From Candidatus Saccharimonadota bacterium (lineage in GTDB: Bacteria; Patescibacteriota; Saccharimonadia; Saccharimonadales; UBA10212), in assembly GCA_016187125.1 (NCBI GenBank), contig JACPKF010000001.1:238178-302177 (forward strand): DNA of 64,000 bases, read 5' to 3'. The position numbers and the translations under genes are program-made. Shown here piece by piece: positions 9,619 to 63,922 of this stretch. The notes under the pieces were generated by a model that ran no database searches, had not been told where the DNA came from, and was given only the letters and a program-made list of their open reading frames with translations. Numbering within the stretch: position 1 is the stretch's first letter; every line of letters begins with the position of its first letter.

Positions 9619-11672
9619 TTATCCAACAATTCGAGTAATTTCTTCTCGTCAATTTGTTTGGTGCCAAGTGTGCGGGCCTGGACCAGTTTTGCCTCGCCAA
9701 CCTTAGCACCAACCACTAAATAATCGGTCTCCTTGCCGACTGAACTTTGGAACGTTCCACCTAGAGCTCGGATTCTTTCAGCTGCTTCTTCTCGGCTCAT
9801 GGATTCCAAACTACCGGTAATCACAAAGTTTTTGCCGGTCAATGGTCCAGTGGTCCTGTGAACTTCCTTGGGATTAACCCCCAACTTTTTGAATTTATCG
9901 AGCAGCCGTTTGTGGCTAGGACGGGCAAACCACTCCACAATCGATTCCGCCACTACTTCGCCGACGCCTGCTACTTGGCTAAGCTCTTCAATGGTGGCCT
10001 GAGCTATCCTAACCAGAGAATGAAAATTATTAGCTAGGTCAATGGCCGTTTGCTCGCCTACTTGCCGAATGCCCAAACCATAAATAAATCTTGGCAGAGT
10101 TGGGCGTTTTTTGGCACCAATGGCACTAACCAGTTTGGAAGCCGAGATTTCGGCGAAGCGTTCCAGCCCAAGCAGGTCTTCTTTTTTGACCCTAAAAATG
10201 TCGGCCTGGTCTTTAATTAAGCCAGCATTGATCAGGGCCATGACATTTTTTTCACCCAAACCTTCAATATCTAGCGCCGCCTTGCTGGCAAAGTGCTGGA
10301 TCTGCTTCCAGGAACGGCTGGGGCAAGCGTTATTTGGGCATCTCCATATGGCTTCTTCTTTTTTGCTTTTTGCCAACTTTGTGTCGCAATCCGGGCAGTG
10401 CGTCGGCATAACGAATGGTTTTTCGGAACCGTCGCGTAGCTTCGTAAGCGGTTCAACAATTTCCGGAATTACGTCACCAGCCTTTTGGACGATTACACTG
10501 TCCCCTACTCTTATATCATTGCGTTTAATTTCCCCTTCGTTATGCAAAGTAGCCATCTGCACAGTGCTGCCGGACACCACTACCGGCTTCAGCATGGCTA
10601 CTGGTGTGGCCGCTCCGGTCCGGCCAATGCTGATAAATATATCCTTAACTTGGGTGGTGGCTTGTTCGGCCGGATATTTAAAAGCCACCGAGCCGCGCGG
10701 CGCCTTGCCCACCACTCCAAGTTGATCATGCAGGCGTCTATCATTAATTTTTACGACCAGTCCATCCGTGTTAAACGGTAGGTTATGGCGTTTTTCCTCC
10801 CATTTTTTATAATAATTCATGATTTCTTCAGCAGAATTAACAGCTGAAGCGATGGTATTGGCTATAATCCCGAGTTCACGCAGAGTTTTGTAAGCATATT
10901 CATTTGTGGGTACTTCGTTGCGGTTCTCGCGAATTAAATCATAAGCGTGGAAATGCAGCGGCCGCTCGGCAACCAATTTGGGATCCAGCTGACGGATGGT
11001 ACCGGCCGCCAGGTTACGTGGGTTAGCAAAAGCTGGCAAACCGGATTTAATCTGTTTTTCATTTAGTTTTTTGAACTCCTCTTTGTACATAACAATCTCG
11101 CCACGAATCTCTGTCCGTCCCTGTAAGAACTTGTGATAGGTTAAACCTATCACATTGCGGAGGCGGAGGGGGACGGATTCGATAGTGCGAATATTGGCGG
11201 TTACGTCTTCGCCTACAAAACCGTCGCCGCGGGTGATAGCCTGCTTTAAAACACCGTTTTTATAAACCAGCGCACAAGCCAAACCATCCATTTTGATATC
11301 CATAAAGAACTTCAATCGTCGAGGTTCGAGGTTCGAGGTTCGAGGTTCATTGCCCGGCATGAGCTTGGTGATACGCGCGATCCAGGCTGCCAATTCTTCT
11401 CTGTTAAAGACATCGTTGAGGCTGAGCATACGCGAGCTGTGGCGGATTTGCTTAAAACCGGGCAGCGGCTCACCGGCTACCCTTTGGGTGGGAGAGTCGG
11501 GCGTAATTAGCTCGGGATATTTCTCTTCAATTTGTGTCAGTTCATGCTTAAGACTATCGGCCGCCGCTTCACTCATAATTGATTTATTCAACACATGGTA
11601 GTTGTAACGATAATCAGAAATTAGATCACGCAATTTAGCCGCCCGATCTTTAGTTGCTTGGATATTTATCAT
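9615..11672 (-). CDS. ligA: NAD-dependent DNA ligase
   Basis: 685 aa. KMDG adenylation motif, OB fold, Cys4 zinc finger (CPDCDTKL...CPNNACP), HhH repeats and a C-terminal BRCT-like domain. Confidence 0.95.
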   Translation of the reverse strand: MINIQATKDRAAKLRDLISDYRYNYHVLNKSIMSEAAADSLKHELTQIEEKYPELITPDSPTQRVAGEPLPGFKQIRHSSRMLSLNDVFNREELAAWIARITKLMPGNEPRTSNLEPRRLKFFMDIKMDGLACALVYKNGVLKQAITRGDGFVGEDVTANIRTIESVPLRLRNVIGLTYHKFLQGRTEIRGEIVMYKEEFKKLNEKQIKSGLPAFANPRNLAAGTIRQLDPKLVAERPLHFHAYDLIRENRNEVPTNEYAYKTLRELGIIANTIASAVNSAEEIMNYYKKWEEKRHNLPFNTDGLVVKINDRRLHDQLGVVGKAPRGSVAFKYPAEQATTQVKDIFISIGRTGAATPVAMLKPVVVSGSTVQMATLHNEGEIKRNDIRVGDSVIVQKAGDVIPEIVEPLTKLRDGSEKPFVMPTHCPDCDTKLAKSKKEEAIWRCPNNACPSRSWKQIQHFASKAALDIEGLGEKNVMALINAGLIKDQADIFRVKKEDLLGLERFAEISASKLVSAIGAKKRPTLPRFIYGLGIRQVGEQTAIDLANNFHSLVRIAQATIEELSQVAGVGEVVAESIVEWFARPSHKRLLDKFKKLGVNPKEVHRTTGPLTGKNFVITGSLESMSREEAAERIRALGGTFQSSVGKETDYLVVGAKVGEAKLVQARTLGTKQIDEKKLLELLDK
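11132..11154. repeat. 23-nt perfect palindrome TGTGATAGGTTAAACCTATCACA, in-frame in ligA
   Basis: 10-nt arms plus flanking T/A around a central A. On the coding strand it encodes VIGLTYH. Identical copy at 54285-54307, 21/23 copy at 35095-35117. Confidence 0.9.
11320..11347. repeat. tandem heptanucleotide (CGAGGTT)x4 inside ligA
   Basis: Four perfect 7-nt units read directly from the sequence. They encode EPRTSNLEPR just upstream of the KMDG motif. Confidence 0.9.
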
Positions 11673-15349: not shown

Positions 15350-16537
15350 ATGATCGTAGCCATGAGTGGAAAGAAAATGATGTTGCTGGCGGCAGGTTTT
15401 TTGCTGATTTTGGGGTTATATCAATATAGTCGGCCGTTGCCAGCCATTGATGCTATTTCTTCACTTAGTGTCCCCGAAACTGGCAAGGCTATAACTTTGC
15501 CCTGGCCAGCTTACGGCCAAGCGGCGATCAGCGCTCAAGGTTATGGCTTGCTGGCCACAAGTGGCGAGCAGAAACCAGTGCCTATGGCATCTATTGCTAA
15601 GGTGGTTACAGCTCTGGCCGTCTTAAAGCAAAAACCACTGGAAAAAGGCCAGCAGGGGCCCAACATCACCATAAGTAAAGATGATGTGGCAATTTACAAC
15701 TCTTATTATTCTCAGGACGGCTCGGTTGTTAAAGTCGAAGCCGGCGAGCAAATCAGTCAATACCAAGCCTTGCAAGCACTTTTGATCCCCTCCGCTAATA
15801 ATATGGCCGAGACTCTGGCGCGTTGGGCCTTCGGCTCGATGGAAAACTATGTTACGTATGCCAACCAAATGTTGCAGGGATTGTCCCTGCAAAACACCCA
15901 AGTAGCCGATGCCAGCGGCTTTTCACCCCAATCAGTTAGTTCTGCCAAGGATCTTGCAAGGCTCGGCCTTGCAGCCATTGGTAACGCTGTGCTGGCCAGC
16001 ATAGTCGGCCAACAAACCGCCGAACTGCCGGTGGCCGGAACTGTTAATAACTTAAATTGGCTGCTTGGCGAGGATGGCGTGATTGGTATCAAGACTGGCA
16101 ATACTGATCAAGCTGGTGGTTGCTATCTTTTCGCTTCTCGTCGAGTGGTTGACGGTCAAAGCGTGACAGTGGTAGGCGCCGTAATGGGGGCTCCGGATCG
16201 CAATACGGCTATCAGCGATTCCCGGACGATACTGCGCTCAATCGATACCAGCTTTGAAAATGTAGTAGTCATTCATAAAGATCAAATCATCGGCTATTAT
16301 CAGACGCCATGGGGAGCAAAAGCCGATGCAGTCGCTGATCAGAACCTAAGCATCTTGGCCTGGCGCGGCAGTCAACTGCAAACCAACGCCAAACTTAACA
16401 AGCTCAAAGCTCCGGCTAGAGCTGGAACTTTAGTGGGTTCAGTATCCGTAACTAGTGGCCAAAAAACCAGTTCAATCCCGGTCATTTTAAAATCCAACCT
16501 GCCCGGCCCATCCTGGCACTGGCGAATATTGCGTTAA
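15350..16537 (+). CDS. D-alanyl-D-alanine carboxypeptidase (S11, PBP5/6-like)
   Basis: SxxK (SIAKV), SxN (SANN) and KTG (KTGNT) motifs in the correct order. N-terminal anchor. Confidence 0.85.
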   Translation: MIVAMSGKKMMLLAAGFLLILGLYQYSRPLPAIDAISSLSVPETGKAITLPWPAYGQAAISAQGYGLLATSGEQKPVPMASIAKVVTALAVLKQKPLEKGQQGPNITISKDDVAIYNSYYSQDGSVVKVEAGEQISQYQALQALLIPSANNMAETLARWAFGSMENYVTYANQMLQGLSLQNTQVADASGFSPQSVSSAKDLARLGLAAIGNAVLASIVGQQTAELPVAGTVNNLNWLLGEDGVIGIKTGNTDQAGGCYLFASRRVVDGQSVTVVGAVMGAPDRNTAISDSRTILRSIDTSFENVVVIHKDQIIGYYQTPWGAKADAVADQNLSILAWRGSQLQTNAKLNKLKAPARAGTLVGSVSVTSGQKTSSIPVILKSNLPGPSWHWRILR

Positions 16538-29255: not shown

Positions 29256-29289
29256 CCTACTAAAATCAGCGATCGCTGATTTTAGTAGG
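29256..29289. repeat. 34-nt perfect palindrome CCTACTAAAATCAGCGATCGCTGATTTTAGTAGG
   Basis: Read directly from the sequence. Lies 38 nt upstream of the uvrC start, in the uvrC/ABC-exporter divergent region. Confidence 0.9.
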
Positions 29290-33005: not shown

Positions 33006-35857
33006 AGCATCTTAGCTAAGAATTGCCCGGTATAGCTAGCCTTTGTTTTGGCGATTTTTTCTGGTGGGCCTTCGGCAATTATTTGGCCACCGGCGTCACC
33101 GCCTTCGGGCCCCATGTCAATCACGTGATCGGCCGATTTAATCACGTCAAGGTTGTGTTCGATCACTATTAGGCTATTGCCAGCGTCGGCAAGAGCCTGC
33201 AGCACATGTAGTAGCTTGGCAACGTCGGCCATATGCAGGCCGGTAGTTGGCTCATCTAAGATATAAAGTGTCCGACCGGTTGGGCGCCGGCTAAGTTCGG
33301 TGGCCAACTTAACGCGCTGGGCTTCACCGCCGGACAGCGTGGTGGCTGGCTGGCCAAGCGTTATATAGCCTAACCCCACGTCCACCAAGGTCTGTAATTT
33401 CCGGGCGATTGTTGGAATGGCCGCAAAAAACTCTAAAGCCTGCTCGGTAGTCATGTCTAGGACACTATTTATGGTCTTGCCCTTGTAGTGAATTTCCAGA
33501 GCTTCCCGGTTATAGCGCTGACCGTGGCAGACTTCACAGGTTACATAAACATCCGGCAAAAAGTGCATCTCGATTTTGATTAGGCCGTCGCCGGCACAGT
33601 TTTCGCAGCGGCCGCCGCGGACATTAAAGCTGAAGCGACCGGGCGCATAGCCCCGCAATTTAGCTTCAGGTGTTGCCGCAAACAGCTCGCGAATAGGTGT
33701 AAATACGCCCGTATAGGTAGCCGGGTTGGAACGCGGCGTCCGACCAATAGGCGATTGGTCTATAACAATCGCTTTATCGAGTTGCTTGATGCCCTCAATA
33801 TCGTCATGCCGGCCCGGCGTAACTTGTGCCCTCATCAGCCTGGCGCTTAGTTCGCGGGCCAAAATGTCGTTGATTAGGCTGGACTTACCCGAGCCGCTGA
33901 CGCCACTGACTACCACCAGTTTGCCCAAGGGGATACTTACATCTATGTTCTTCAAATTGTTCTCACGGGCACCTTTTATGAGAAGCTGTTTACCGTTGCC
34001 CGAGCGGCGTTTCTTTGGTGTCGGAATAATTTTTTCTCCCCGTAAAAATTGGGCAGTAACACTGACTTTGACTTTAGCTACCTCGCCCGGTACACCGGTA
34101 GCCACGATTTTGCCGCCGTGAATACCGGCCCCCGGACCAATATCTACTAAGAAATCGGCGCTGCGAATAGTTTCCTCATCATGTTCAACCACTATTACGC
34201 TGTTGCCTAAATCTCTTAGCTGTCTAAGGGTGTTAAGCAAGCGTCTGTTGTCGCGTTGGTGCAGGCCAATGCTCGGTTCGTCCAAAACATACAGCACTCC
34301 TTGAAGCCCGGAGCCAATTTGAGTCGCCAAACGGATCCGCTGGGCTTCGCCGCCAGACAAACTGACAGCGCTGCGGGCCAAGTTAAGATAGTTAAGGCCG
34401 ACGTCTTGTAGAAACTTTAATCGGGCATTAATTTCTTTCAAAATTTGCTGAGCGATTTTAGTTTCGGTGGCGTCTAATTTAATAGTTTTGAAGAACTCCA
34501 GGGCTTTATCAATATCTAGTTCGCAAATATCCATAATATTACTTCTGGCAACTGTCACCGCCAAAACCTCGGGCTTCAGTCGCTTCCCGCCGCAACCGTG
34601 GCAAGGCTTCTCTTGCATAAATCGTTCTATATCACGCCGGATAAAATCGCTTTCGGTCTCTTTGTAGCGACGTTCTAAGTTGTAAACCACTCCCTCGTAA
34701 GTAGTGTTAAATGACCGGCCAACGCCCAGGCTGATTCTGTAGGTTTCACCGCCCGTACCATACAGGATTTTATCCAGTTGAGCAGCCTTTAACTCGCCTG
34801 TCGGTTGATGGATGCTAAAGCCATAGCGATCGGCTACAGCCTGCATTTTTTTCATATACCAGGCGTCGGTATTAATTCTATTGAAGGGGCGAATGGCGCC
34901 TTCGGCAATCGTCAGCCGGCCGTTGGGAACGACCAGTTCCGGGTCAACTTCCAGGCGGTTGCCCAGGCCAGTACAAACCGGGCAGGCACCGTGCGGGCTG
35001 TTAAAACTAAATGTCCTGGGCTCCAGCTCCGGAATTGCCACATCCGGATGATCGACACAAGCGTATTTTAATGAATAATGATACTCCTGCTCTTTGTGCG
35101 AGGTTAAACCTATCACATTGTTAAAGGCTACAACTGTTAGTAAGCCATCGGCCAGATCCAAGGCTTGCTCTACGCTTTGAGCTAGGCGCGTGCGGTTTTG
35201 TTGGTCATTAACCACACGATCAACCACAATTTCAATAGTGTGCTTGTAGTTTTTATCAAGTGTCGGAAACTCATCTAAGGCATAAATAATGCCGTCTACT
35301 CTAGCCCGGGCAAAGCCGGCCCGGGCAAATTGCTCTGGAATATGTTCGAAGGCGCCTTTTTTGTCTATTACTACGGGAGCAAGTATTATGATTTTACCAT
35401 CTTGAGTGGTCTTGATAACTTGATCCAAAATAGCGTTGCTTGTCTGACGGGTCACTGGCTTGGCACAAACCTGCTCGTCCGGCAGGCGGGCCGGACAATG
35501 TGCAATACCAATGCGGGCAAACAAAAGACGCAAATAGTCATAAATTTCGGTGACGGTTGCTACCGTGCTACGCGGATTGCGGCTGGCCGATTTTTGATCA
35601 ATACTGATGGCTGGGGAAAGACCGTCAATCTGGTCAACATCCGGTTTTTCCATAATCCCTAGAAATTGCCGAGCGTAAGCACTTAAAGACTCTACGTAAC
35701 GACGCTGGCCCTCGGCGTAAATTGTGTCAAAAGCCAGTGAAGATTTGCCCGAGCCCGACAGCCCGGTTATGACGACTAGTTTCTCGCGCGGAATCTCCAA
35801 AGAGATATTCTTTAAGTTATGCTCACGCGCTCCCCGAATACTAATAAACTCTGCCAT
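33002..35857 (-). CDS. uvrA: excinuclease ABC subunit A
   Basis: 951 aa. Two ABC modules ([22 protein letters not shown]), zinc-finger Cys motifs and two LSGGE signatures. Confidence 0.95.
35095..35117. repeat. copy (21/23) of the 23-nt palindrome, in-frame in uvrA
   Basis: TGTGCGAGGTTAAACCTATCACA. Encodes VIGLTSH in the same frame as the ligA and mnmA copies. Confidence 0.85.
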
Positions 35858-42729: not shown

Positions 42730-42770
42730 CATCCGTTATTTACAAGGAGGCTCCTTGTAAATAACGGATG
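42730..42770. repeat. 41-nt hairpin (19-bp perfect stem, 3-nt loop) between obg and the Pro-rich gene
   Basis: CATCCGTTATTTACAAGGA-GGC-TCCTTGTAAATAACGGATG. Confidence 0.85.
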
Positions 42771-50357: not shown

Positions 50358-50389
50358 CACTTCTATGTTTCTTAAGAAACATAGAAGTG
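50358..50389. promoter_or_regulatory. 32-nt perfect palindrome, probable operator of the adjacent wHTH regulator
   Basis: CACTTCTATGTTTCTTAAGAAACATAGAAGTG, 30 nt upstream of the regulator ATG in the divergent region with the ftsA-like gene. A related core GTTCTTAAGAAC lies at 50667-50678. Confidence 0.6.
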
Positions 50390-52741: not shown

Positions 52742-53590
52742 GTGGCTATTTTACTGGCTTATATTTTTTACTTCGTAGCTTCTACTTCCTCGAAGTTGCA
52801 ACGACGACAACTGGCGACGACCCGCGAAACCGATGTTGGACAGATTGACTTTGCCTTCCGCGTAACATTGATAATTTTTGTTTTAACTCCCCTGCTAATA
52901 CTGTTCAATCGGCCGGTGTTCAACCAGCCAATCGGCACTTTAATTATGCTATCGACGGTCTGTGGAGCATTCGGTGCAATCGCATTAAGTACCCAGTATG
53001 TAGCACAACGCCACGTCGAGGCTGGCTTAACCTCTCTAATAGGCAACATTTACGCACCGACGACGATTGTACTTGCGACCATACTGTTGAACGAGGGGCT
53101 CAAAGCCCGTCAGGTCATCGGCGCAATTCTATTAATAAGTTCAGTGGTTTTGGTTAGTCGAAAGCATCGGTTAAGCCGGTGGCGTTTTGACCGTTACTTC
53201 TGGCTGAACGTTATAGCCGGCGTTGCATTGTCTTTTGGCTTAACCGCCGAGCGAGCTTTAATCAAATACAACAGCTTAACGACCGGCGCTTTGCTGAGTT
53301 GGGGTTCTGGAGCTCTTTTTCTAGGACTGGCGGCTTTAGCCAGTGGCACTAAAAGCCAGCATAACCTCAAAGAGGCATCTCTGACGGGGAGTCTGCGCTT
53401 TTTACACCAGGTGTCATGGATTGTTTTGGTGACAGTTGTAGCAAACTTAAGCGTGGTTTCTGCTGTAGCGACATTTTCAACAGCTGTGACTTTTTTCGCG
53501 GCGGCCATCTTCCTACATGAACGCGAAGACTTAAAACGCAAGATTATCGGCAGTTTTATTGCTGCAGCTGGTTTGCTTCTGATGGTTTAG
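52742..53590 (+). CDS. EamA/DMT-family transporter
   Basis: 282 aa, about 10 TM helices in two similar halves. Confidence 0.65.
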   Translation: MAILLAYIFYFVASTSSKLQRRQLATTRETDVGQIDFAFRVTLIIFVLTPLLILFNRPVFNQPIGTLIMLSTVCGAFGAIALSTQYVAQRHVEAGLTSLIGNIYAPTTIVLATILLNEGLKARQVIGAILLISSVVLVSRKHRLSRWRFDRYFWLNVIAGVALSFGLTAERALIKYNSLTTGALLSWGSGALFLGLAALASGTKSQHNLKEASLTGSLRFLHQVSWIVLVTVVANLSVVSAVATFSTAVTFFAAAIFLHEREDLKRKIIGSFIAAAGLLLMV

Positions 53591-54705
53591 ATGACTATTC
53601 CCCCACCCAAACATTCTGCACCGCAGTAGAAAACAGCTGATTGACCAGGAGTTAGCGCCCGCACTTCTTCTTCAAGTTCCGCCATCACACCTTCCATAGG
53701 GTACGACCCTATAAGGGTGAGTGATTTGACTGGAATTAGTTTTGCCCGATGCCTTGTCCGCACTTGCAAGGCTTGGCCTTGCAAAGGGGCTTCATTGATC
53801 CAATGCATATCAGTAAGCCGGATTTCCTTGCTCCAGAGTTTTGCGTCTTGCAGGTCGGTTGTGACATAGACTTCGTTTTTTTTCATGTTTTTGCCAGTGA
53901 CGTAATATGGCAAGCCGCCCTGCCTGCCGGCAGGCAGGCGCCAACCTATATCTAAGCCGTGGCGCTGACCGATAGTATAAAAGATAGCCCCGTCATGCTC
54001 ACCGATTTCTTTTTGGTTTTGGTCAATAATTTTGCCAGGTTTTTGCTTGACGAACTGCTCCAGGAAATCTTTGATCGGAACTTTGCCGACAAAACAAATA
54101 CCCATGCTTTCTTTCTTTTTGGCAGTCACTAGATTATTTTTCTCAGCTAGCTTTCTGACTTGCGGCTTGGTTAGGTCGCCCAGTGGAAAAATAGTTTTTG
54201 CCAATGCTTTTTTTGATACGCGGTACAAAAAATAAGTCTGATCTTTAATTTGGTCTTTGGCCATTAGTAACTGCGAACTTGTCTTGTGATAGGTTAAACC
54301 TATCACAGAGCGCGCGTAGTGACCGGTGGCGATCAAATCTGCTCCATCTTCCAAAGCTGTTTCCAAAAAGAGTTTAAATTTAATTTCCTGATTGCACATA
54401 ATGTCCGGGTTTGGCGTGTGACCAGCTTTGAATTCATCAAGCATATAATCCACAACTTTTTGCTTATACTGCTTTTGGAAGTCATACATTCTAAAATCTA
54501 TACCAAGCTGGATGGCCACCCGCTTGGCGTCTTGATAATCTTCTTGCCAGGGGCATTTCATACCGGGCAAATCCTGGCTCCAGTTTTTCATATAAACACC
54601 AGCAACGTTGTAGCCCTGCTGTTTTAGCAGCAGAGCCGAAACGGAAGAATCCACGCCACCGGATAAACCAACATACACCTTTTTCATCGGATTACAGTTT
54701 AGCAT
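53587..54705 (-). CDS. mnmA: tRNA 2-thiouridine(34) synthase MnmA
   Basis: PP-loop GLSGGVDSSV, catalytic Cys context (NPDIMCN, GICF), DQTYFLY motif. Alternative start at 54687. Confidence 0.9.
   Translation of the reverse strand: MLNCNPMKKVYVGLSGGVDSSVSALLLKQQGYNVAGVYMKNWSQDLPGMKCPWQEDYQDAKRVAIQLGIDFRMYDFQKQYKQKVVDYMLDEFKAGHTPNPDIMCNQEIKFKLFLETALEDGADLIATGHYARSVIGLTYHKTSSQLLMAKDQIKDQTYFLYRVSKKALAKTIFPLGDLTKPQVRKLAEKNNLVTAKKKESMGICFVGKVPIKDFLEQFVKQKPGKIIDQNQKEIGEHDGAIFYTIGQRHGLDIGWRLPAGRQGGLPYYVTGKNMKKNEVYVTTDLQDAKLWSKEIRLTDMHWINEAPLQGQALQVRTRHRAKLIPVKSLTLIGSYPMEGVMAELEEEVRALTPGQSAVFYCGAECLGGGIVI
53919..53938. repeat. 20-nt perfect GC palindrome CCTGCCTGCCGGCAGGCAGG in-frame in mnmA
   Basis: Read directly from the sequence. 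Encodes LPAGRQG within DIGWRLPAGRQGGLPYY. Confidence 0.85.
54285..54307. repeat. 23-nt perfect palindrome TGTGATAGGTTAAACCTATCACA, in-frame in mnmA
   Basis: Identical to the ligA copy. Encodes VIGLTYH. Confidence 0.9.
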
Positions 54706-55065: not shown

Positions 55066-55384
55066 TTGCTCTTAGCTGTGACTAAATTGACCAAAAGAAT
55101 CAGGCATCTGCCGAGCCCTGATTAGATGTTATCAATAAATAAGTGCCCTTGGGTGGCTTTGGGTGTCCGTGCGAGTAATTTATCCGGTGGATCAATTGCG
55201 AGGAGTTCCAAAGCCAAACTTATTTTTGACAATCAGCTACTCAAGGTGAGGCAGGGCCCGAGAGCTTTTGCATACTTTTGACGGCACAAAAGTATGAATA
55301 GTTTGCTACTTTACAAAGTAGATCTGCTACAAGGATTATCCTTGTAGCAGACAGGTTTGGAAAAGAACCATTTATAAAGTGTTT

Positions 55385-57070
<1,686 letters not shown>

Positions 57071-60930: not shown

Positions 60931-61755
60931 TTACAGCCTTAATATTAAATATATGCCAGTTAGCCCAGCAAAAAACACTCCAACAGCCGAAAAAATAACT
61001 TGCGACAGGCTACGCATAATTGTGTGCCGGCTCAAGGGATTGCGGCCAATTGCAACCATGCCGCTGCGTACTCCCACCCAAACCAGCGTGAAGGACACTA
61101 TCATAGTTATAAGAAAGATCGCAAACACCGTGTAAATCCTAAGCAGCGATAGGCGCCGACCAGCTATATATTCGCTCAGGCGTTTAATTGGCTCAGGTAC
61201 AAGGCCGGCACTATTTATTAGCGGGTTTTTACCAGGTGCAATCTGGACTCGGATTTTATCGCTTATGGTTGTGCTGGAGGTCTTATTAGCCGTGGAATTA
61301 TTGCCGTCAAAACCTTGCAAGGCCCGGCCTAGTACATACGAGTCGTTACTGGTCGCCTTAGCAGCCACGCCGTCAGTCGAAGATATTGATAAATAATTAC
61401 CTGAGCTGATGGAGCCCTTCTCGGCAGTCACTAGCACAGAGTAAATGCCGCCGTTGGCAACTAGTACCTGCTGGCCTCGATTTTGAATACTAACTGAGGC
61501 CTCAGACGGACTAATAACCACACCATATATTCGATCTGGTGTGCCAGCCGGTGCCAGCTCGACGCTGCTGGAGTCATCGCGGCTTATGGCTACCACGACC
61601 CCGAGCTGAAGATCATCTTTAGCTTTAAAACTACGAGGTATATTATCGGCTCCGGCGTAGGCCGTACCTAAAAAAGTCGCCAGCAATAATGCCCCAACGC
61701 CAAATTTAACTGCCAGCCAGCTTCTTTTTGATAACGGCCTAAACACCAGTGTCAT
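60931..61755 (-). CDS. secreted/anchored protein with a C-terminal two-helix membrane hairpin, unknown function
   Basis: 274 aa. Signal-like N-terminus, a ~170-aa external domain, and a C-terminal TM-loop(GRNPLSR)-TM. It occupies the position where atpB/atpE are expected. Confidence 0.55.
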   Translation of the reverse strand: MTLVFRPLSKRSWLAVKFGVGALLLATFLGTAYAGADNIPRSFKAKDDLQLGVVVAISRDDSSSVELAPAGTPDRIYGVVISPSEASVSIQNRGQQVLVANGGIYSVLVTAEKGSISSGNYLSISSTDGVAAKATSNDSYVLGRALQGFDGNNSTANKTSSTTISDKIRVQIAPGKNPLINSAGLVPEPIKRLSEYIAGRRLSLLRIYTVFAIFLITMIVSFTLVWVGVRSGMVAIGRNPLSRHTIMRSLSQVIFSAVGVFFAGLTGIYLILRL

Positions 61756-63140: not shown

Positions 63141-63922
63141 ATCAGCCCAAAAAGCTGTCTAGCGTTCTTAGTAGTTTGTCTAGCCAGTTGTTCAACTTCT
63201 TCCCCACGTAGCTCGGCCAAGCACTCAGCAATGTCGCGGATATGTTTCGGCTGGCAGATTTCGCCTCTATAGGGCTTTGGCGCCAGAAACGGCGCGTCGG
63301 TTTCTAACAGCAATTTGCCAGTTGGCACCAGCTTAGCGGCAGCCAGCTGGGCTCTATCTTTAGTAAAAGTCATTATGCCATTAAGGCCGACATATAAACC
63401 ACGCTCCAGAACTTGCTGCAACTGTTTAGGATGAGCGCTAAAGCTATGAACCACGCCCCGTATCCGCCGGCTGGGGGATTGATACTCATCAAAAATTTTG
63501 AAGAAATCTTCAAAGGCTTCACGAACATGGAATATAAAAGGCAGCCCGGTTTCTAGACCAATTTCGATCTGTTCACGTAGGGCTTTGGTCTGCTCCTCTT
63601 TAGATGAATACAGTTTGTAATAATCCAGTCCTAACTCCCCCACTGCCATAACTTTCGGTTTACCCAGCAATCTTCTCATTTCCAAGGCCTGGCCTTGGAA
63701 AGCTTGGTCCTCAAAAGCTTTGGCATCGTGTGGATGAATACCAACGCTCGCCCAGACGTTTTGATGACAACCAGCAAAAGTTATAGCTTTCTGACTATCG
63801 GCTAAAGTGGTGCCGACGGCAATCATGCGAGTTACGCCAGCCTTAGCGGCGTCGGCTAAAAGCTGAGTGGGCTGCAAAAAATCATCGAAATGCGGGTGGC
63901 AATGAGTATCAACAAAATACAT
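63137..63922 (-). CDS. TatD-family metal-dependent hydrolase
   Basis: FVDTHCHPHF N-terminal motif, GLDY, HVREA/H..SF, and LLETDAP near the C-terminus. Confidence 0.9.
   Translation of the reverse strand: MYFVDTHCHPHFDDFLQPTQLLADAAKAGVTRMIAVGTTLADSQKAITFAGCHQNVWASVGIHPHDAKAFEDQAFQGQALEMRRLLGKPKVMAVGELGLDYYKLYSSKEEQTKALREQIEIGLETGLPFIFHVREAFEDFFKIFDEYQSPSRRIRGVVHSFSAHPKQLQQVLERGLYVGLNGIMTFTKDRAQLAAAKLVPTGKLLLETDAPFLAPKPYRGEICQPKHIRDIAECLAELRGEEVEQLARQTTKNARQLFGLI

Follow-up and report, generated by a model that had tools for sequence, protein, structure and literature searches.

The same 23-nt palindrome lies inside three genes of a Saccharibacterium, ligA, uvrA and mnmA, and is read in frame as part of each encoded enzyme. 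This raises the question of what kind of sequence it is and how it came to be translated there. The answer that we favor, with a probability of about 85%, is that the 23-mer is the REP element of a REP/RAYT system belonging to this genome, and that the copies within genes are translated passengers. Elements of this kind, intragenic REPs, are known; what is new is the phylum in which they are found and the lack of the usual GTAG tag. In the following, the window denotes the whole stretch of DNA that was analyzed (64,000 nucleotides), and its features are collected in Table 1.

Table 1. Palindrome copies and the genes that contain them (positions in the window).
Feature	Position	Strand	Description
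ligA, NAD-dependent DNA ligase, 685 aa	9615..11672	-	NCBIfam NF005932, 774.6 bits
Putative REP copy 1	11132..11154	-	exact 23-mer TGTGATAGGTTAAACCTATCACA inside ligA
uvrA, excinuclease ABC subunit A, 951 aa	33002..35857	-	NCBIfam NF001503, 1492.8 bits
Putative REP copy 2	35095..35117	-	degenerate copy inside uvrA, 2 mismatches (TGTGCGAGG...)
mnmA, tRNA 2-thiouridine(34) synthase	53587..54705	-	NCBIfam NF001138, 421.3 bits
Putative REP copy 3	54285..54307	-	exact 23-mer TGTGATAGGTTAAACCTATCACA inside mnmA

A repeated hairpin is translated in three genes

All three host genes were identified with NCBIfam equivalog models at scores over the cut-off. The window's LigA and MnmA are 100% identical to MBI2588833.1 (Candidatus Saccharibacteria bacterium) and MBI2588869.1, respectively, and the annotated MnmA protein, which begins at the second Met, has 366 aa. 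A sequence-only reading of the window had reported identical copies in ligA and mnmA and a 21/23 copy in uvrA, all located in minus-strand genes and read as VIGLT(Y/S)H, and both the positions and the ORF translations bear this out. On the coding strand, the ligA copy AA-TGTGATAGGTTTAACCTATCACA-AG gives N-VIGLTYH-K, the uvrA copy TGTGATAGGTTTAACCTCGCACA gives VIGLTSH, and the mnmA copy is translated as S-VIGLTYH-KTSS (ORF context RSVIGLTYHKT). A relaxed pattern (16 fixed bases, ≤3 mismatches) revealed no copy beyond these three across the 64-kb window. Chance matches to the 23-mer numbered 0 in 100 dinucleotide-preserving shuffles, even when 3 mismatches were allowed.

As had been noticed, the 23-mer is a palindrome save for its central base, around which two 11-nt arms are arranged. 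As single-stranded DNA, the ligA copy is predicted to form a 10-bp stem with a 3-nt loop (-9.0 kcal/mol, z = -7.4). The predicted hairpin of the mnmA copy has -8.6 kcal/mol, and that of the uvrA copy is weaker (-4.5 kcal/mol), with its 2 mismatches disrupting 2 stem pairs. The element thus has the stable stem-loop of a REP (23 nt, 9-11 bp stem, z of about -6 to -7 for the exact copies).

It had also been argued that only some combinations of orientation and frame can be translated. This is correct for the closed frame TG TGA TAG and for the flipped orientation that stops at GGT TAA, and the frame GTG ATA GGT TTA ACC TAT CAC on the coding strand is indeed open; however, the third frame, TGT GAT AGG TT(T/A) AAC CTA TCA (CDR(F/L)NLS), is stop-free in either orientation, and 3 of the 6 orientation/frame combinations of the 23-mer are free of stops. 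The broader point stands that a repeated palindrome is translated in frame in unrelated essential genes and that only stop-free combinations are seen. The three copies are flanked by AA/AG, AA/AA and TC/AG, with no target duplication.

Rfam models at gathering thresholds matched only tRNAs over the window. The window's own variant of the palindrome had no match in 185,579 scanned species genomes, and a metagenome scan returned one short contig (L001) on which the copy is apparently intergenic. The copies counted were 3 in 64 kb, 3 at the RAYT gene described below and 1 on this contig.

Insertion in uvrA and mnmA, replacement in ligA

LigA is 7 residues longer than E. coli LigA at the insertion point, an excess that the sequence-only reading had given correctly. 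Relative to close Saccharibacteria orthologues, in which the site reads R-xxKxxEx-FLKGRT, the excess is just 2 residues, and compared with the closest orthologue, which is without the element (L008), ligA has 24 nt in place of 18 nt. MnmA has 8 additional residues relative to the common orthologue state TGHYAR-TKDGKLLMAK, and ∼85 of 120 MnmA orthologues have no insert of any kind. UvrA is likewise 8 residues longer at the copy than a 79%-identical UvrA (L071). Judged from these alignments, the clean insertion of 7-8 codons that had been proposed holds for uvrA and mnmA, with 8 codons in each, but not for ligA, which has a replacement with a net gain of 2 aa. The insertion sites are indel-prone among orthologues, as expected for in-frame insertion at tolerant positions. 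Mapping onto structure, which had been suggested as a check, places the MnmA copy at the low-confidence tip of a beta-hairpin in an AF2 model, between strands 126-128 and 139-141, where residues 130-135 have pLDDT < 50.

A hairpin family with covarying stems across Patescibacteria

Hairpins with the family consensus TGTGA-N-AGG, 5-nt loop, CCT-N'-TCACA are widespread in Patescibacteria. Among 57 copies found with a pattern in which stem position 6 was unconstrained in both arms, this position is complementary in 43, against an expected 25% (p = 2e-15). A single ligA site carries two variants, GATAGG...CCTATC in the window and GAAAGG...CCTTTC in L005, and the encoded peptides covary as I/Y, K/F and R/S, which corresponds to the codon complementarity ATA/TAT, AAA/TTT and AGA/TCT. 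The variants are genome-specific: the loop is TCTAA in all JACPKG01 copies, GAGAGG is combined with ACGGA in all JBBRZI01 copies, and orthologous copies carry the variant of their own genome. Related MAGs contained 3-5 copies in the fragments examined.

Within genes, the reading V-x-G-x-(T/S)-x-H prevails almost without exception. Of 14 copies in other genomes whose host genes were identified with confidence, 13 are read in this V-x-G frame, and one genuine copy, in an aminopeptidase, is read in another frame as CERSDLSQ. MnmA of L128 contains a REP dimer that is in frame. The invariant part of the family, TGTGA / TCACA, lies within the stem; a GTAG or CGTC tetranucleotide at the stem-loop ends was absent from all copies, the flanks of which are variable, and no conserved target motif was seen when the flanks of some 60 copies were inspected. 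As a separate observation, 7 codons of a peptidase S11 gene are replaced by a palindrome of a second family, and the length of the gene is unchanged.

A RAYT gene is bracketed by the same hairpins

A gene co-occurring with the element, such as a transposase, had been proposed as something to look for, and one was found on the same contig. The single Y1/HUH tyrosine transposase of this contig, MBI2588900.1 (P0324), is of the IS200/RAYT type; it shares the 397,248-bp contig with the window's LigA and MnmA and lies about 31 genes past mnmA, beyond the window. A tblastn search over the 64-kb window found no homologue of RAYT, murD or the response regulator. The flanks of the gene were read on Logan contigs encoding an identical protein (L125-L127), not on the NCBI contig itself. 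On these contigs two exact 23-mers lie upstream of the gene, the second of them adjoining the ATG, and at the other end come a 1-mismatch copy and a partial arm containing the stop codon. The same REPtron layout is present in three Saccharibacteria MAGs (L088, L091 and L112), where an ORF of ∼208 aa lies between hairpins, the upstream one of which ends with the A of the ATG. In four genomes the RAYT gene sits between murD and a response regulator, with hairpins overlapping both its start and its stop codon.

The ∼208-aa ORF scores 45.3 bits against Pfam Y1_Tnp (cut-off 23) and contains HUH (NHFHLL) and Tyr (RYIHLNP) motifs. Its top NCBIfam match is 'REP-associated tyrosine transposase', with a RAYT score of 44 bits that is below the 80-bit equivalog cut-off. 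The RAYT has ∼206 aa and a long helical extension at the C-terminus. A PDB search with its sequence alone gave no match, and the family profile gave only weak ISDra2 matches around the HUH motif. The AF2 model of P0324 (pLDDT 84), by comparison, has as its top fold match 4ER8, which is E. coli RAYT in complex with a REP hairpin, followed by ISDra2 and IS608 TnpA. A cognate Y1/HUH gene flanked by the repeats, as is characteristic of REP/RAYT systems, is therefore present, with the flanks taken from Logan contigs.

The sequence-only reading had recognized a palindromic element and had named neither the REP family nor the RAYT partner, which is located outside the window. Of its two further suggestions, the excision footprint has nothing in its favor, and the protein-binding site survives only in the sense that the hairpin is of the kind that a RAYT transposase would recognize.

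How the hairpins may spread

By analogy with E. coli RAYT and IS200/IS605, the RAYT would mobilize the hairpins. A hairpin would form in DNA that is single-stranded, as at the replication fork, and a RAYT dimer would recognize, cut and rejoin it, by which REPs could be copied or moved to new places and beside existing REPs. In a small genome with, as we assume, little non-coding space, many insertions would hit genes. The copies that persist would then be those that add a multiple of three bases and have a stop-free frame, at a site where additional residues are tolerated. The ligA, uvrA and mnmA copies are probably such survivors, in which case they would not stem from the ancestral sequence of these enzymes. 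Net changes of +2 (ligA) and +1 (UvrA of L071) are unlike the prediction of a simple precise insertion; these odd net lengths, together with the genome's own variants at orthologous sites, mean that secondary deletion, re-insertion or gene conversion would be needed as well. To our knowledge, transposition in vivo has never been demonstrated for any RAYT.

A bolder version, which we regard as doubtful, is that the Patescibacteria REPs are gene-resident cassettes that RAYT rewrites at fixed hot spots, with exchange from a master copy and remodeling of loops. If so, orthologous ligA and mnmA sites would undergo concerted evolution, and short coding stretches would be exchanged, the net change being 0, +1, +2, +4 or +8 codons, or ∼+21 with dimers. 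The loops remodeled in this way would belong to conserved, mostly nucleic-acid-handling enzymes, and the hairpin might be kept for a DNA- or RNA-level function inside genes.

Alternative explanations

Single hairpins could also be remnants, left after excision or after recombination within a hairpin-spacer-hairpin unit, rather than primary 23-nt insertions. Such units would be in line with the two hairpins spaced 30-40 nt apart at the MnmA site of orthologues (P0163/L128, P0196, P0169 and P0217), with the paired hairpins ∼50-60 nt apart upstream of RAYT genes, and with the partial 9-nt arms (nnTATCACA) that trail some copies. We nevertheless consider this origin improbable, as none of the sites shows a target-site duplication or a larger autonomous element and no dimer stage occurs among the ligA and uvrA orthologues collected. 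Moreover, it concerns the history of individual copies and stays inside the REP framework, REP dimers being normal in REP families (PMC3733652).

A DNA-level signal that was selected in place, such as an uptake sequence or the site of a chromosomal protein, and that was built by mutation and biased recombination, seems very improbable to us. It would explain that the ligA element substitutes for resident codons instead of adding 8, that the second palindrome family swaps peptidase S11 codons at constant length, and that the variants are genome-specific with the local variant at orthologous sites; Saccharibacteria are reported to be naturally competent (PMC10633639). The gains of 8 codons and the in-frame dimers, however, are insertions and not point-mutational drift, an uptake signal has no need of base-pair covariation between arms, and the hairpins bracketing a Y1 transposase gene in four genomes are the REP/RAYT signature. 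The very high motif density of USS/DUS is also not seen, since 3 copies in 64 kb (≤3 mismatches) is well under known uptake sequences, which occur roughly once per kb.

Selection for the peptide VIGLTYHK itself, gained convergently by several enzymes, is hardly credible. Nearly all intragenic copies use one reading frame and the residues suit a beta-hairpin that turns at Gly, but the substitutions follow codon complementarity and not chemical similarity, identical copies are found at RAYT flanks and apparently outside genes, the aminopeptidase copy uses the other frame, and in the uvrA copy stem pairing is lost and Y has become S. Such selection is already contradicted by the covariation pattern and by the copies outside genes.

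Other identities were rejected: the TGTGA...TCACA ends fit a CRP-type operator, yet their spacing is 13 versus 6 in the consensus; no copy is followed by the T-run of an intrinsic terminator; a MITE would have an internal region enclosed by terminal inverted repeats, and a target-site duplication, whereas the whole unit here is one hairpin; chance or codon constraint is ruled out by the shuffles and the copies apparently outside genes; and a CRISPR-like mini-array, considered because some MnmA genes show a repeat-spacer-repeat order, was dropped after the RAYT association was found.

Relation to known systems

The REP/RAYT reading places the element among stem-loop repeats of the 20-40 nt class. 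Features shared with known systems are a single Y1/HUH gene bracketed by repeats overlapping its ends (the 'REPtron'), sub-families with alternative complementary stem residues, singles as well as dimers, and copies within ORFs including uvrA and DNA ligase. The differences are that the foot, TGTGA, is inside the stem with no GTAG or CGTC tag, that the RAYT falls below the NCBIfam RAYT cut-off and has its long C-terminal helical extension, and that the host belongs to Patescibacteria/Saccharibacteria. Each of the three copies in the window is intragenic instead of extragenic, a location that is also on record for established REP families (PMC3733652). In that survey, Di Nocera et al. 2013 catalogued intragenic REPs in other phyla, with uvrA, DNA ligase, tRNA synthetases and tRNA-modifying enzymes among the listed hosts; uvrA was a host in several distant phyla and DNA ligase in Opitutus terrae.

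IS200/IS605 elements (IS608, ISDra2) have the same Y1 HUH transposase fold, probably a similar recognition of DNA hairpins, and likewise no terminal inverted repeats or target duplication. They differ in having distinct left-end and right-end hairpins and in moving as a gene-containing unit, whereas here the RAYT gene is at a conserved chromosomal position and the hairpins alone are dispersed.

Rickettsia palindromic elements (RPEs), to which the palindrome had been likened, are also palindromic repeats that are translated in frame in many protein genes, and they are thought to lie in tolerant parts. RPEs are Rickettsia-specific and the window comes from a Saccharibacterium; in addition, RPE-1 type elements are several times longer than the 23-mer, and the Saccharibacteria system has a RAYT. 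The comparison was apt, since the intragenic REPs of R. conorii have been equated with RPE-4 and RPE-6 and classed as CGTC REPs (PMC3733652), which appear in Table 1 of that survey without an associated transposase gene.

Implications

Our findings would extend REP/RAYT systems to the candidate phyla radiation; a literature search found no paper tying RAYT or REPIN to Patescibacteria/Saccharibacteria. They would also add a REP type without GTAG, the tag thought to guide RAYT recognition. The recurrence of uvrA and DNA ligase as REP hosts, as in distant phyla in 2013, makes the question of why REPs occupy repair and tRNA-handling genes more testable, and in these small genomes sites, frames and variants can be compared over thousands of metagenome-assembled genomes. 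Finally, the 8-residue inserts, along with longer ones at the same hot spots, would account for odd lengths among Saccharibacteria orthologues, and such inserts should not be taken for functional motifs.

The palindrome and its family in other genomes

The sequence-only reading had described one palindrome in three genes, and this was borne out: two exact copies and one copy with two mismatches lie in ORFs whose products match the NCBIfam equivalog models for LigA, UvrA and MnmA well over cut-off. A relaxed pattern (16 fixed bases, at most three mismatches) matched nowhere else in the window, and none of 100 dinucleotide-preserving shuffles of the window contained a 23-mer match with up to three mismatches. 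As single-stranded DNA, both exact copies fold into a 10-bp stem with a 3-nt loop (-8.6 to -9.0 kcal/mol; z about -6 to -7); two stem pairs are gone from the uvrA copy, which folds at -4.5 kcal/mol. On the coding strand the element reads GTG ATA GGT TTA ACC TAT/TCG CAC, i.e. VIGLT(Y/S)H. The earlier argument on frame tolerance was right for two frames; the third, however (TGT GAT AGG TTN AAC CTA TCA), is stop-free in either orientation, so that three of the six orientation/frame combinations are open.

We consider it very probable (roughly 85%) that the 23-mer is a REP hairpin repeat of a known element class, REP/RAYT, RAYTs being REP-associated Y1 tyrosine transposases. The window's exact variant had no match in 185,579 species-representative genomes and a single occurrence, in apparently non-coding DNA, in the metagenome set. 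With stem position 6, its partner and the loop left free (pattern TGTGANAGGNNNNNCCTNTCACA), at least 116 stretches matched. These matches are non-random, despite a chance expectation that we calculate at a few hundred in 596 Gb. Among the matches listed, at least ~49 loci belong to MAGs of Saccharibacteria or other Patescibacteria, with several copies per genome, and 43 of the 57 copies in Patescibacteria have complementary bases at the free stem pair (25% expected, P = 2e-15). The stem-plus-loop variant is, again among the matches listed, specific to each genome (GATAGG with loop TCTAA in JACPKG01, GAGAGG with ACGGA in JBBRZI01, GAAAGG with CTTAG in CAYRVC01). The element is a hairpin repeat family with stem covariation.

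Fourteen copies among the matches listed lie in confidently identified genes elsewhere: MnmA (twice), LigA, UvrA, TsaD, ArgS (one orthologous site in three genomes), an FtsJ/S4 methyltransferase, a methylpurine DNA glycosylase, a methyltransferase in two genomes, FGAM synthase and aminopeptidase P. The V-x-G-x-x-x-H frame is used by 13 of them.

A hairpin-flanked transposase gene

In three Saccharibacteria loci (L088, L091 and L112), an ORF of ~208 aa sits between murD and a response regulator gene, with a hairpin on either side, ~650-730 nt from each other. This ORF matches Pfam Y1_Tnp at 45.3 bits (cut-off 23) and carries the motifs NHFHLL (HUH) and RYIHLNP (Tyr); its top NCBIfam model is 'REP-associated tyrosine transposase', at 44 bits under the cut-off of 80. 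Homologues likewise adjoin hairpins in L063, the Nealsonbacteria MAG L095 and the Elusimicrobia MAG L108. No RAYT homologue was found within the 64-kb window. A homologue search did return P0324 (206 aa), identical to MBI2588900.1, which is encoded on the 397,248-bp contig of LigA and MnmA and lies 31 accession numbers past MnmA (MBI2588869.1).

The flanks of the P0324 gene were read on three Logan contigs (L125-L127) that encode exactly this protein. Upstream lies an exact 23-mer (loop TTAAA) followed by tctatcaca, and 50 nt further a second exact 23-mer (loop TTTAA), the final A of which is the first base of the ATG. The TGA stop falls within a partial arm, TGTGATAGG, and downstream a copy with one loop mismatch is followed by agctatcaca. 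In fold, the best match of the P0324 AF2 model (pLDDT 84) was 4ER8, a complex of the E. coli RAYT with a REP hairpin (E = 3.9e-4, TM 0.60 on target), ahead of the ISDra2 and IS608 transposases. A co-occurring nuclease or transposase gene, as envisaged in the sequence-only reading, is present: a cognate Y1 transposase gene on the same contig, bracketed by the same hairpins on the Logan contigs. The RAYT gene adjoins murD in L088, L091, L112 and L125, with the response regulator on its other side in three of the four, and this conserved neighbourhood in four Saccharibacteria genomes suggests that the gene is single-copy and passed on vertically, not a mobile insertion sequence.

Behind some REPs come partial right arms of 9 nt (nnTATCACA) in tandem, which in LigA of L002 encode IYHNYH. 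Repeated cutting and joining at the foot of the hairpin may have left them.

Positions of hairpins and other palindromes in the window and in loci of other genomes (L-numbers)
Feature	Location	Position	Remark
REP	ligA (-)	11132-11154	exact TGTGATAGGTTAAACCTATCACA
REP	uvrA (-)	35095-35117	two mismatches to TGTGATAGGTTAAACCTATCACA
REP	mnmA (-)	54285-54307	exact TGTGATAGGTTAAACCTATCACA
Partial arms	L002	4432-4475	
Partial arms	L125	1436-1467, 2147-2192	
Second family	window	15872-15892, 15955-15973, 53764-53784, 63679-63701	
Second family	window	61318-61332	near-copy
Second family	L002	707	
Second family	L119	1431	
Second family	L051	7631	
Second family	L077		TsaD
Loopless palindrome	mnmA	53919-53938	CCTGCCTGCCGGCAGGCAGG
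Palindrome	ORF >=150 aa	47044-47070	12-nt arms
Palindrome	intergenic	29256-29289	17-nt arms
Palindrome	intergenic	42730-42770	20-nt arms
Palindrome	intergenic	50358-50389	16-nt arms
Three palindromes	intergenic	55271-55403	cluster

State of the host sites in orthologues

A Candidatus Saccharibacteria bacterium has proteins (MBI2588833.1 and MBI2588869.1) that match the window's LigA and MnmA, respectively, at 100% identity. In 120 Saccharibacteria LigA orthologues the usual state of the site is R-xxKxxEx-FLKGRT (14 residues), compared to R-NVIGLTYHK-FLQGRT (16 residues) in the window; the 7-residue excess over E. coli noted previously is true but exaggerates the change. Seven of the 120 carry the element: L002 has the identical stem with loop TCTAA and two additional 9-nt partial arms, both arms of the L005 copy (TGTGAAAGG-TCCGT-CCTTTCACA) are changed in a compensatory way, and in P0016 the element is offset by one residue. 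A clean insertion of 7-8 codons, as had been proposed, fits uvrA and mnmA (+8 residues each) but not ligA, where 24 nt stand in place of 18 nt in L008, the closest orthologue (80% protein identity). The excess in UvrA lies precisely at the element relative to the 79%-identical L071 orthologue, which has its own copy at another position (DVIGQSSHKGG, +1 residue relative to the window). In MnmA, S-VIGLTYHK-TSS-Q interrupts the usual TGHYAR-TKDGKLLMAK, found in ~85 of 120 orthologues, and P0122 (L129) shares insertion and flanks, but with loop TCTAA. Judged from these alignments, the VIGLT(Y/S)H codons appear not to be ancestral at the host sites.

Structural mapping placed the insertions in variable regions: the element forms a hairpin tip between strands 126-128 and 139-141 in the AF2 model of MnmA (pLDDT 83; <50 for residues 130-135), and all three sites are gapped or length-variable in alignments to solved LigA, MnmA and UvrA. 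This MnmA beta-hairpin turn, after TGHYAR, is an insertion hot spot across Saccharibacteria (orthologues P0121-P0240), holding the variants VKGLTFH and VRGPSSH, in-frame REP dimers (in L128, two hairpins with 37 nt between), unrelated repeat-like peptides (VEHAPAHSSQLTANSS, VEHTPAKSPSSPKVHQ) and low-complexity inserts of 63-65 residues. At orthologous sites the element is present in some genomes and absent from others; it strongly prefers one reading frame and lies in variable loops.

Other palindromes

A second intragenic family, CAAGGC-N3-GCCTTG / TTGCAGGGA-N3-TCCCTGCAA, reads LQG(L/Q)(S/A)LQ; its arms covary, and the window holds four matches where 0.27 are expected. In a peptidase S11 gene it replaces seven codons, with length unchanged relative to the L005 and L008 orthologues. 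The loopless palindrome of mnmA (perfect, 10-nt arms) encodes RLPAGRQ, an insert that only 5 of 120 MnmA orthologues have and that is modelled at pLDDT <50; this brings mnmA to three different palindromic inserts. The whole window has 40 perfect palindromes (arms >=8, loop <=7), compared to 1-9 in shuffles, and 18 of the 40 are inside ORFs >=150 aa. Gut Firmicutes MAGs carry a separate multi-copy family, TTTTA-TGTGATAGGAAATTCCTATCACA-TAAAA, with the stem of the window element and A/T-rich flanks (e.g. SVEL01: L045, L064, L065, L087, L116; CAKRFN01: L020, L048, L050, L053; also CAVHZH01 and CALBJL01 loci); tblastn found no RAYT homologue in those fragments.

Spread of the element and relation to known systems

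By analogy with IS200/IS605 elements and the RAYT of E. coli, the hairpin would form on single-stranded DNA and the RAYT would cut and rejoin it, spreading copies, of which those that break genes would all be purged by selection. Some features do not fit simple insertion. At some sites the net change in length is +1 or +2, and element evolution is concerted: the window genome has loop TTTAA in its ligA, uvrA, mnmA and RAYT copies, whereas in relatives the orthologous sites of ligA and mnmA carry TCTAA. The ligA element differs from that of L002 at 1 of 23 bases, in genes 73% identical overall and 49% at third positions. Together with the second family's replacement without length change in the peptidase S11 gene, these observations suggest that copies re-insert at sites already occupied or undergo gene conversion with one another.

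Di Nocera et al. 2013 divided REPs into families by their GTAG or CGTC tag, described RAYT genes that REPs flank and overlap, and listed intragenic REPs in several phyla, with hosts including uvrA, DNA ligase, tRNA synthetases and tRNA-modifying enzymes; those of R. conorii were equated with RPE-4 and RPE-6 (PMC3733652). The architecture is identical here, but the Saccharibacteria element is without a GTAG/CGTC tag, its RAYT is both more divergent and of greater length, and the host phylum (Saccharibacteria/Patescibacteria) is new. In full-text searches we found no publication tying RAYT, REPIN or REP-associated transposases to Saccharibacteria/Patescibacteria, which, the literature coverage being incomplete, is weak evidence of absence. 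The palindrome was real and correctly seen, and the surprise of three essential-gene hosts is explained by the known element class. The recurrence in uvrA and ligA, the absent tag, the hot spots and the concerted evolution remain of interest to specialists.
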